64,000 nt of DNA, from NCBI RefSeq assembly GCF_003019035.1, contig NZ_CP027447.1; one strand, 5' to 3'. Positions within the stretch are counted from its first letter, which is position 1; the number at the start of each line of letters is the position of its first letter. The position numbers were made by a program, and so were the translations under genes. Below are positions 37,695 through 37,977 of this stretch, piece by piece. The notes beneath the pieces were generated by a model. It was given only the letters and a program-made list of their open reading frames with translations. It did not search any database and had not been told where the DNA came from. The DNA is from Escherichia coli. GTDB lineage: Bacteria > Pseudomonadota > Gammaproteobacteria > Enterobacterales > Enterobacteriaceae.

Positions 37695-37943
37695 AGATCC
37701 CAACAGGATAATGGCATTGATGGCCCTGGCTCAGGCCAGGGCGGGCAATACCGGTTCCTGCGAAGCGATGATGGCGGCAAGTGTAACCACGAAATGCGGT
37801 ATCACTTGCTGTTTTCTGCCCTGAAGACTGGCGCTCACTGTGCCGTCGAACTTTCAATCAAATATATTGCGATAGGGCGTGTTTGCGAGCTGCTTTCCAG
37901 AAACAGAAAAACCATTACCCCTGAAAACCGAAAAATGCCACAA

Positions 37944-37963
37944 TATTGGCTGTTTATACAGTA
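37944..37963 (+). promoter_or_regulatory. LexA (SOS) box of the dinG promoter
   Basis: tattggctgtttatacagta lies about 15 bp upstream of the dinG ATG; matches the known non-canonical dinG SOS box from memory. Confidence 0.7.
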
Positions 37964-37977
37964 TTTCAGGTTTTCTC

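Follow-up and report, generated by a model that had tools for sequence, protein, structure and literature searches.

The 283 bp that separate the espX2 stop codon from dinG in this Escherichia coli genome (positions 37695-37977 of the analysed stretch of 64,000 nucleotides, here called the window) very probably form a composite, in which the terminal segment of the espX2 island, a GC-rich tail with a candidate terminator, is followed by an ancient conserved spacer that belongs to dinG. On the basis of sequence comparisons, the real right junction of the island is placed between positions 37878 and 37879, 99 bp 5' of the dinG ATG (37978-37980; 37977 is the final base before the start). This is an ordinary, essentially known island boundary that holds nothing surprising for a specialist: the island is already known as a strain-specific segment, and dinG-ybiB as a LexA-regulated operon. 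The locus has the following layout, with an AT-rich segment between rhlE and the 670-aa ORF.

33714-35075, plus strand: rhlE, upstream of the espX2 island.
35077-37878: espX2 island (S-loop 57 type), the entire replaced segment, from the rhlE stop to the dinG core.
35183-35491, minus strand: remnant of a 561-aa hypothetical gene, its C-terminal 103 codons (tblastn match to residues 459-561, 97% identity).
35682-37694, plus strand: espX2, 670 aa, 35% GC, a type III secretion effector gene.
37695-37878: GC-rich island tail, about 184 bp.
37879-37977, plus strand: conserved core 5' of dinG, 99 bp, with the promoter region, LexA box and ribosome-binding region.
37944-37963, plus strand: dinG LexA (SOS) box TATTGGCTGTTTATACAGTA, an exact single match with 0 expected by chance.
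37978-40128, plus strand: dinG (ATP-dependent DNA helicase), from the RefSeq annotation of the identical record.

The 670-aa ORF is labelled "type III effector" or "EspX2" in RefSeq, and the relatives of EspX2 carry PF13979 and PF13981. In O157 Sakai, EspX2 is ECs0876 and resides on S-loop57, a strain-specific segment missing from K-12 (PMC2323221). The segment in the window was assigned to the espX2 islands as it encodes, between rhlE and dinG, a protein with at least 90% identity to annotated EspX2. S-loop 57 of O157:H7 Sakai shares with it the same gene, the same rhlE-dinG position, the GC-rich tail and both junctions, at 95.8% nucleotide identity over the segment, although the two alleles are about 4-5% different. 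Unlike O157:H7, which is 95.8% identical over positions 34900-38200, E. coli SCU-301 is 100% identical to the window over this region, island included; this strain has a commensal-type source, a rectal swab of a healthy student. When the protein database was searched for a donor of EspX2, every relative with 90% identity or more came from E. coli, so that no donor context emerged.

The preliminary description of this region, made from the letters of the window, had let core-like composition return about 280 bp before dinG and had ended the replacement at the stop of the 670-aa ORF. A step in GC content is indeed present at 37695, from 0.348 in the espX2 ORF (35682-37694) to 0.532 in 37695-37882, with 0.39 in 37883-37977 and a window mean of 0.51, but this step is not the island junction, and the replaced segment ends about 184 bp further right. 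Of 5426 complete E. coli genomes searched by megablast with 37695-37977 (283 bp), 5421 gave a match, which spanned the full query in no more than 541. Among the matches listed, island-free genomes align exclusively over query positions 189-283 (37883-37977), with one prophage-bearing strain that aligns over 225-283 only. The last 95 bp before dinG are kept at 95% identity or higher in 5421/5426 genomes (about 99% among the matches listed), and homology to island-free genomes starts only at 37879-37883. Likewise, alignment with the K-12 ybiA-dinG region recovers just these last 95 bp, whereas 37695-37878 is not shared with K-12. The interval is thus foreign in its larger part (37695-37878) and conserved core in the remainder (37879-37977).

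The junction was resolved further in a five-allele alignment that includes K-12 ybiA, the truncated ybiA of THO-006 ("B2"), a RelE/ParE-type toxin-antitoxin pair and two espX2 alleles. All five allele types are identical from GTTATTGCGAGC onwards, which gives a common breakpoint, and the right break reads GT(T/G)(A/T)TTGCGAGC. The espX2 alleles mostly read GTGTTTGCGAGC at the junction, and in one of them (L093) the island tail is joined straight to the K-12-type GTTA form; because the tail of this allele runs directly into the K-12 form, the junction was placed between 37878 and 37879. Every alternative allele examined here breaks at this point.

With the junction 99 bp before the dinG ATG, the replacement does end upstream of the dinG promoter region, as had been proposed, and the view that the dinG LexA box and ribosome-binding site are intact also holds: everything from the box through the ATG is identical to K-12, including the Shine-Dalgarno-like CAGG and the dinG start, and the box itself is the same in all E. 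coli alleles aligned. The box has the form TTG-N10-CAG and does not fit the canonical CTG-N10-CAG; the pattern CTGT-N8-ACAG does not occur in the window. In K-12, too, the dinG box is non-canonical in this manner, and since it shares the TTG, this departure is not damage. By its nucleotide diversity, 0.0036 as compared with 0.071 at dinG third codon positions, the core at 37879-37977 is judged to be under strong constraint. Its right 48-50 bp or so are kept in most other genera sampled, and the whole stretch in some. In K-12, the last 99 bp before dinG are common with the window and almost identical, the LexA box TATTGGCTGTTTATACAGTA included, but the adjacent DNA differs: in K-12 the gene ybiA, for a NADAR N-glycosidase, lies on the other strand and starts 20 bp left of the shared core, whereas in the window ybiA and those 20 bp are absent and unrelated DNA stands instead. 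The dinG-ybiB operon is LexA-regulated in K-12 (PMC10123104). In E. coli SF-088, a prophage end with tail fibre genes and a recombinase-family gene (L107 3400-3570) abuts dinG 59 bp before the ATG, at about 37919, where the LexA box is kept and the upstream 40 bp of the core are displaced. The core can thus be the site of a prophage junction as well, in some strains.

The island occupies a slot that is bounded on the left by the rhlE stop codon and on the right by the point 99 bp before the dinG ATG, and that is filled differently, or is almost empty, in other genomes. Its occupants are ybiA in K-12, a truncated ybiA in THO-006 and E. albertii, a toxin-antitoxin pair, the scar of a toxin-antitoxin pair (E69), espX2, and espX2 together with the 561-aa gene. 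The region 5' of dinG was compared across 80 representatives of Enterobacteriaceae species (L011-L090). Most of them, including Kluyvera, Enterobacter, Leclercia, Salmonella and many Citrobacter, have no ybiA between rhlE and dinG. For example, in Kluyvera, Citrobacter amalonaticus, Citrobacter sp. FP75, Enterobacter and others (e.g., L015, L019 and L033), the rhlE stop is followed immediately by TTGCGAGCC, then by a hairpin with a U-tract, which is the rhlE terminator, and by the dinG LexA box; some Citrobacter, Klebsiella and Enterobacter loci hold about 4 kb of other DNA in the slot. Since the gene-free arrangement of rhlE and dinG is found in most genera, the K-12 ybiA looks like an insert, and it appears to be specific to its lineage. 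The E. coli core start, TTGCGAGC, is equivalent to the bases that come right behind rhlE where the slot has no gene. Among the truncated forms, the NADAR/ybiA remnant of THO-006 (L004 909-1106) has its right breakpoint exactly where K-12 ybiA and the espX2 island have theirs. The E. albertii remnant (L011 5700-5909) ends at the core start or within a few bases of it; its 77% protein identity to residues 91-160 of K-12 YbiA suggests a separate allele lineage.

On the left side, the island breaks immediately after the rhlE stop, "CAGTAAT". The K-12 rhlE terminator is retained in the other slot alleles, whereas the espX2 allele has at this end an unrelated hairpin, GGGCAAAAG...CTTTTGCCC followed by AUUAUU (35070-35125; -15.7 kcal/mol, z = -3.0). 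Because the espX2 allele swaps the rhlE terminator hairpin for one of its own, the cassette seems to supply a candidate substitute terminator for rhlE. A longer form of the island, in which the 561-aa gene (WP_000551719.1) is intact and divergent from espX2, was observed in other strains (L010 2798-4483) and in two metagenome contigs. Relative to this form, the short one lacks about 1.47 kb, and the flanks of the deletion overlap by 23 bp at the breakpoint (35469-35491); as read from this comparison, the window island is a deletion derivative of the longer form. Two individual strains carry further lesions at the locus: in E. coli ESDR8, espX2 is interrupted by an IS2 insertion (L095 1-3300), and in O145 RM8995-C1 the dinG gene beside the island is annotated as frameshifted (L009 3583-5732).

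The distribution of the GC-rich tail follows that of the island. The same 541 of the 5426 complete E. coli genomes were recovered with the 283-bp interval, with a 188-bp tail query and with a 3.3-kb query made of rhlE, island and dinG that they cover to 80% or more, so that the co-occurrence of 37695-37878 with the espX2 island is strict and can be regarded as established. In a sensitive blastn search, the 188-bp query matched a single place in each of these 541 genomes and nothing else; no second copy of the tail occurs in them near other espX genes. Among metagenomes, all ten of ten contigs with an invariant 25-mer of the tail show the espX2-tail-dinG context of the E. coli locus. A plasmid search with the tail gave nothing, since its lone match, of 4.9 Mb, is a chromosome deposited under the label of a plasmid, and a phage search gave nothing credible; we rejected an origin from a mobile element or phage as neither source held a credible match. 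No counterpart of the tail was found 5' of dinG in the 80 Enterobacteriaceae species representatives (blastn with word size 7, and tblastx), and inheritance of this allele from a related species was rejected given its absence from these 80 loci.

Searches for known families were equally negative for the sources covered. None of the six frames of the tail matched a Pfam family, NADAR included, at E-values up to 10, and the Rfam search over 35000-38100 gave no family, with one chance miRNA match at E = 0.28. The GC content by codon position in the tail fits an old minus-strand reading frame in which stops are now present. The most coding-like minus-strand frame, compared with 5.8 billion proteins, matched nothing except ORFs predicted on this very E. 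coli DNA, and a remnant of another known protein was rejected, there being no parent protein beyond these ORFs. From these comparisons, the tail is island DNA, not core, and in all likelihood a non-coding flank on the 3' side of espX2. For a tail of 53% GC next to a gene of 35% GC, the simplest reading would be that a piece of adjacent DNA was taken along from the site where the cassette was assembled.

The tail has two prominent predicted stem-loops and one short open frame.

37704-37760, plus strand: hairpin 1, a long imperfect stem-loop with apical stem GCCCTGGC/GCCAGGGC, -33.1 kcal/mol, z = -3.8, without a U-tract after it.
37770-37817, plus strand: hairpin 2 with a U-rich tract, -21.3 kcal/mol, z = -3.2.
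37711-37824, plus strand: 37-codon Cys-rich ATG frame, judged not to be a gene.

The outer stem of hairpin 1 is often disrupted in other alleles. The core stem of hairpin 2 (37777-37783/37803-37809) is GCAAGUG/CACUUGC and is followed by UGUUUUCU at 37810-37817. The distance of this element from the espX2 stop is about 80-120 nt, which puts it in the half of the tail that varies less. Hairpin 2 is plausibly the intrinsic terminator of espX2, a candidate that could shield dinG from read-through. Its interior region is 19 nt long and its U-tract is interrupted; one allele has a G within this tract. Hairpin 2 is intact in the window allele, whereas a stem mismatch weakens it in the O157 allele (-14.8 kcal/mol, z = -1.4). 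A simple consensus scan for promoters and terminators over 37500-38100 did not call hairpin 2; as the scan flagged no dinG promoter in this range either, its negative outcome is weak. Among 14 distinct alleles, covariation of the tail stems did not exceed that of shuffled controls (157/500 reach the observed score); with a divergence of no more than 2-6% among the alleles, the pair counts do not decide the matter.

A comparable organization is found in Kluyvera, C. amalonaticus, Enterobacter and Leclercia, where the co-directional upstream gene also ends in a hairpin with a U-tract before the LexA box. In these genera, however, the terminator is that of rhlE and is 50-60 bp away from the LexA box with no intervening gene, whereas in the window a 2.8-kb island intervenes and hairpin 2 is unrelated in sequence to their rhlE terminator. 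The role of the latter would fall here to tail hairpin 2. According to the composite reading, the tail of about 184 bp is a non-coding segment of E. coli-like GC content that is inherited with espX2, most likely as its 3' flank. Hairpin 2 and its U-rich tract would probably end the transcription of espX2, and the co-directional dinG would stay under its own LexA-controlled promoter, with the tail in a presumed terminator or insulator role. The remaining part, 37879-37977, is the ancient rhlE-dinG spacer with the dinG control elements, unchanged from K-12. The alleles of the slot are presumably exchanged through homologous recombination within rhlE and dinG on either side.

It is possible, though less likely, that the tail has no function at all and is a hitch-hiking scrap of decayed gene or intergenic DNA, acquired during cassette assembly and kept by linkage, in which case the hairpins would be incidental. 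The trace of a former minus-strand frame, now with stops, and the lack of covariation in the stems would both suit a scrap, as would the toleration of a 1-bp deletion and of an 8-bp duplication in the tail. Nucleotide diversity points in two directions. The value for the whole tail, 0.044, is close to 0.046 at espX2 third codon positions, but the two halves differ: the first (37695-37788) has a diversity of 0.068, near the dinG third-position value given above, and appears to evolve at about the neutral rate, whereas the second has 0.020. With 94 bp in each half, there are 21 segregating sites in the first and 7 in the second. This reduction, about 3.5-fold, concerns the half with the terminator-like hairpin and argues against a tail devoid of function, as does the failure to find a parent gene, either for the best frame among the 5.8 billion proteins or in the 80 related loci.

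An improbable extension of the composite reading gives the junction itself a special role. The point at -99, GTTATTGCGAGC, would then not simply mark where selection stops further replacement but be a preferred recombination site for the exchange of unrelated cassettes (ybiA, truncated ybiA, toxin-antitoxin, espX2 with or without the 561-aa gene), and the tail, far from inert, would be a functional cassette end, be it for termination or insulation or as a substrate of recombination.

A small protein or a small RNA encoded by the tail is very unlikely. Open frames of 35-67 codons do exist on both strands, and both strands fold better than shuffled sequences (z about -3). The preliminary description had pointed to a 37-codon Cys-rich frame from an ATG at about 37710; this frame is present at 37711-37824, but it is established that the small frames of the tail are not conserved among alleles. 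The 37-codon frame is broken by a stop codon in L092 and by the 8-bp duplication, which shifts the frame, in L099, and its substitutions among alleles are nearly all non-synonymous; having a stop, a frameshift and no sign of purifying selection across alleles, it was rejected as a small protein gene. On the minus strand, the 35- and 67-codon frames are put out of frame by the 1-bp deletion in L009; in L092, a stop interrupts the 35-codon one as well. In addition, protein homologues of the tail frames are limited to ORFs called on the same DNA, and the tail region has neither an Rfam match nor, in the weak consensus scan, a promoter-like site.

The least credible alternative, close to exclusion, is that the island ends at the espX2 stop and that the 280 GC-rich bp are native core, a remnant of the displaced ybiA or of its promoter as had been suggested: the change in GC from 0.35 to 0.53 falls exactly at the espX2 stop and K-12 ybiA adjoins dinG, starting only 20 bp left of the shared core, but K-12-type genomes match the last 95 bp only, the tail is limited to the 541 island-bearing genomes, and no NADAR or other Pfam match was obtained in its six frames. 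Smith-Waterman alignments of the tail with the K-12 ybiA region, the B2 truncated-ybiA remnant and the toxin-antitoxin allele, each compared with 300 shuffles, all stayed within the shuffled controls (scores of 16-22 against shuffle means of 17-19, with 28-294 of the 300 shuffles as high or higher), and a ybiA remnant was rejected.

For annotation, the edge of the espX2 island belongs between 37878 and 37879, not at the ORF stop. The outcomes are this corrected boundary, the removal of the ybiA-remnant idea and of the small-ORF gene candidate, and the suggestion of a cassette terminator. Beyond this, the locus may be of some modest use to work on integration hotspots and on the ways in which islands spare neighbouring promoters: a single intergenic slot holds five or more alternative inserts that all share their right breakpoint, and the foreign cassette seems to bring its own terminator-like hairpin. 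Because the SOS promoter region of dinG is untouched, the regulation of dinG is expected to be normal in espX2-positive strains.
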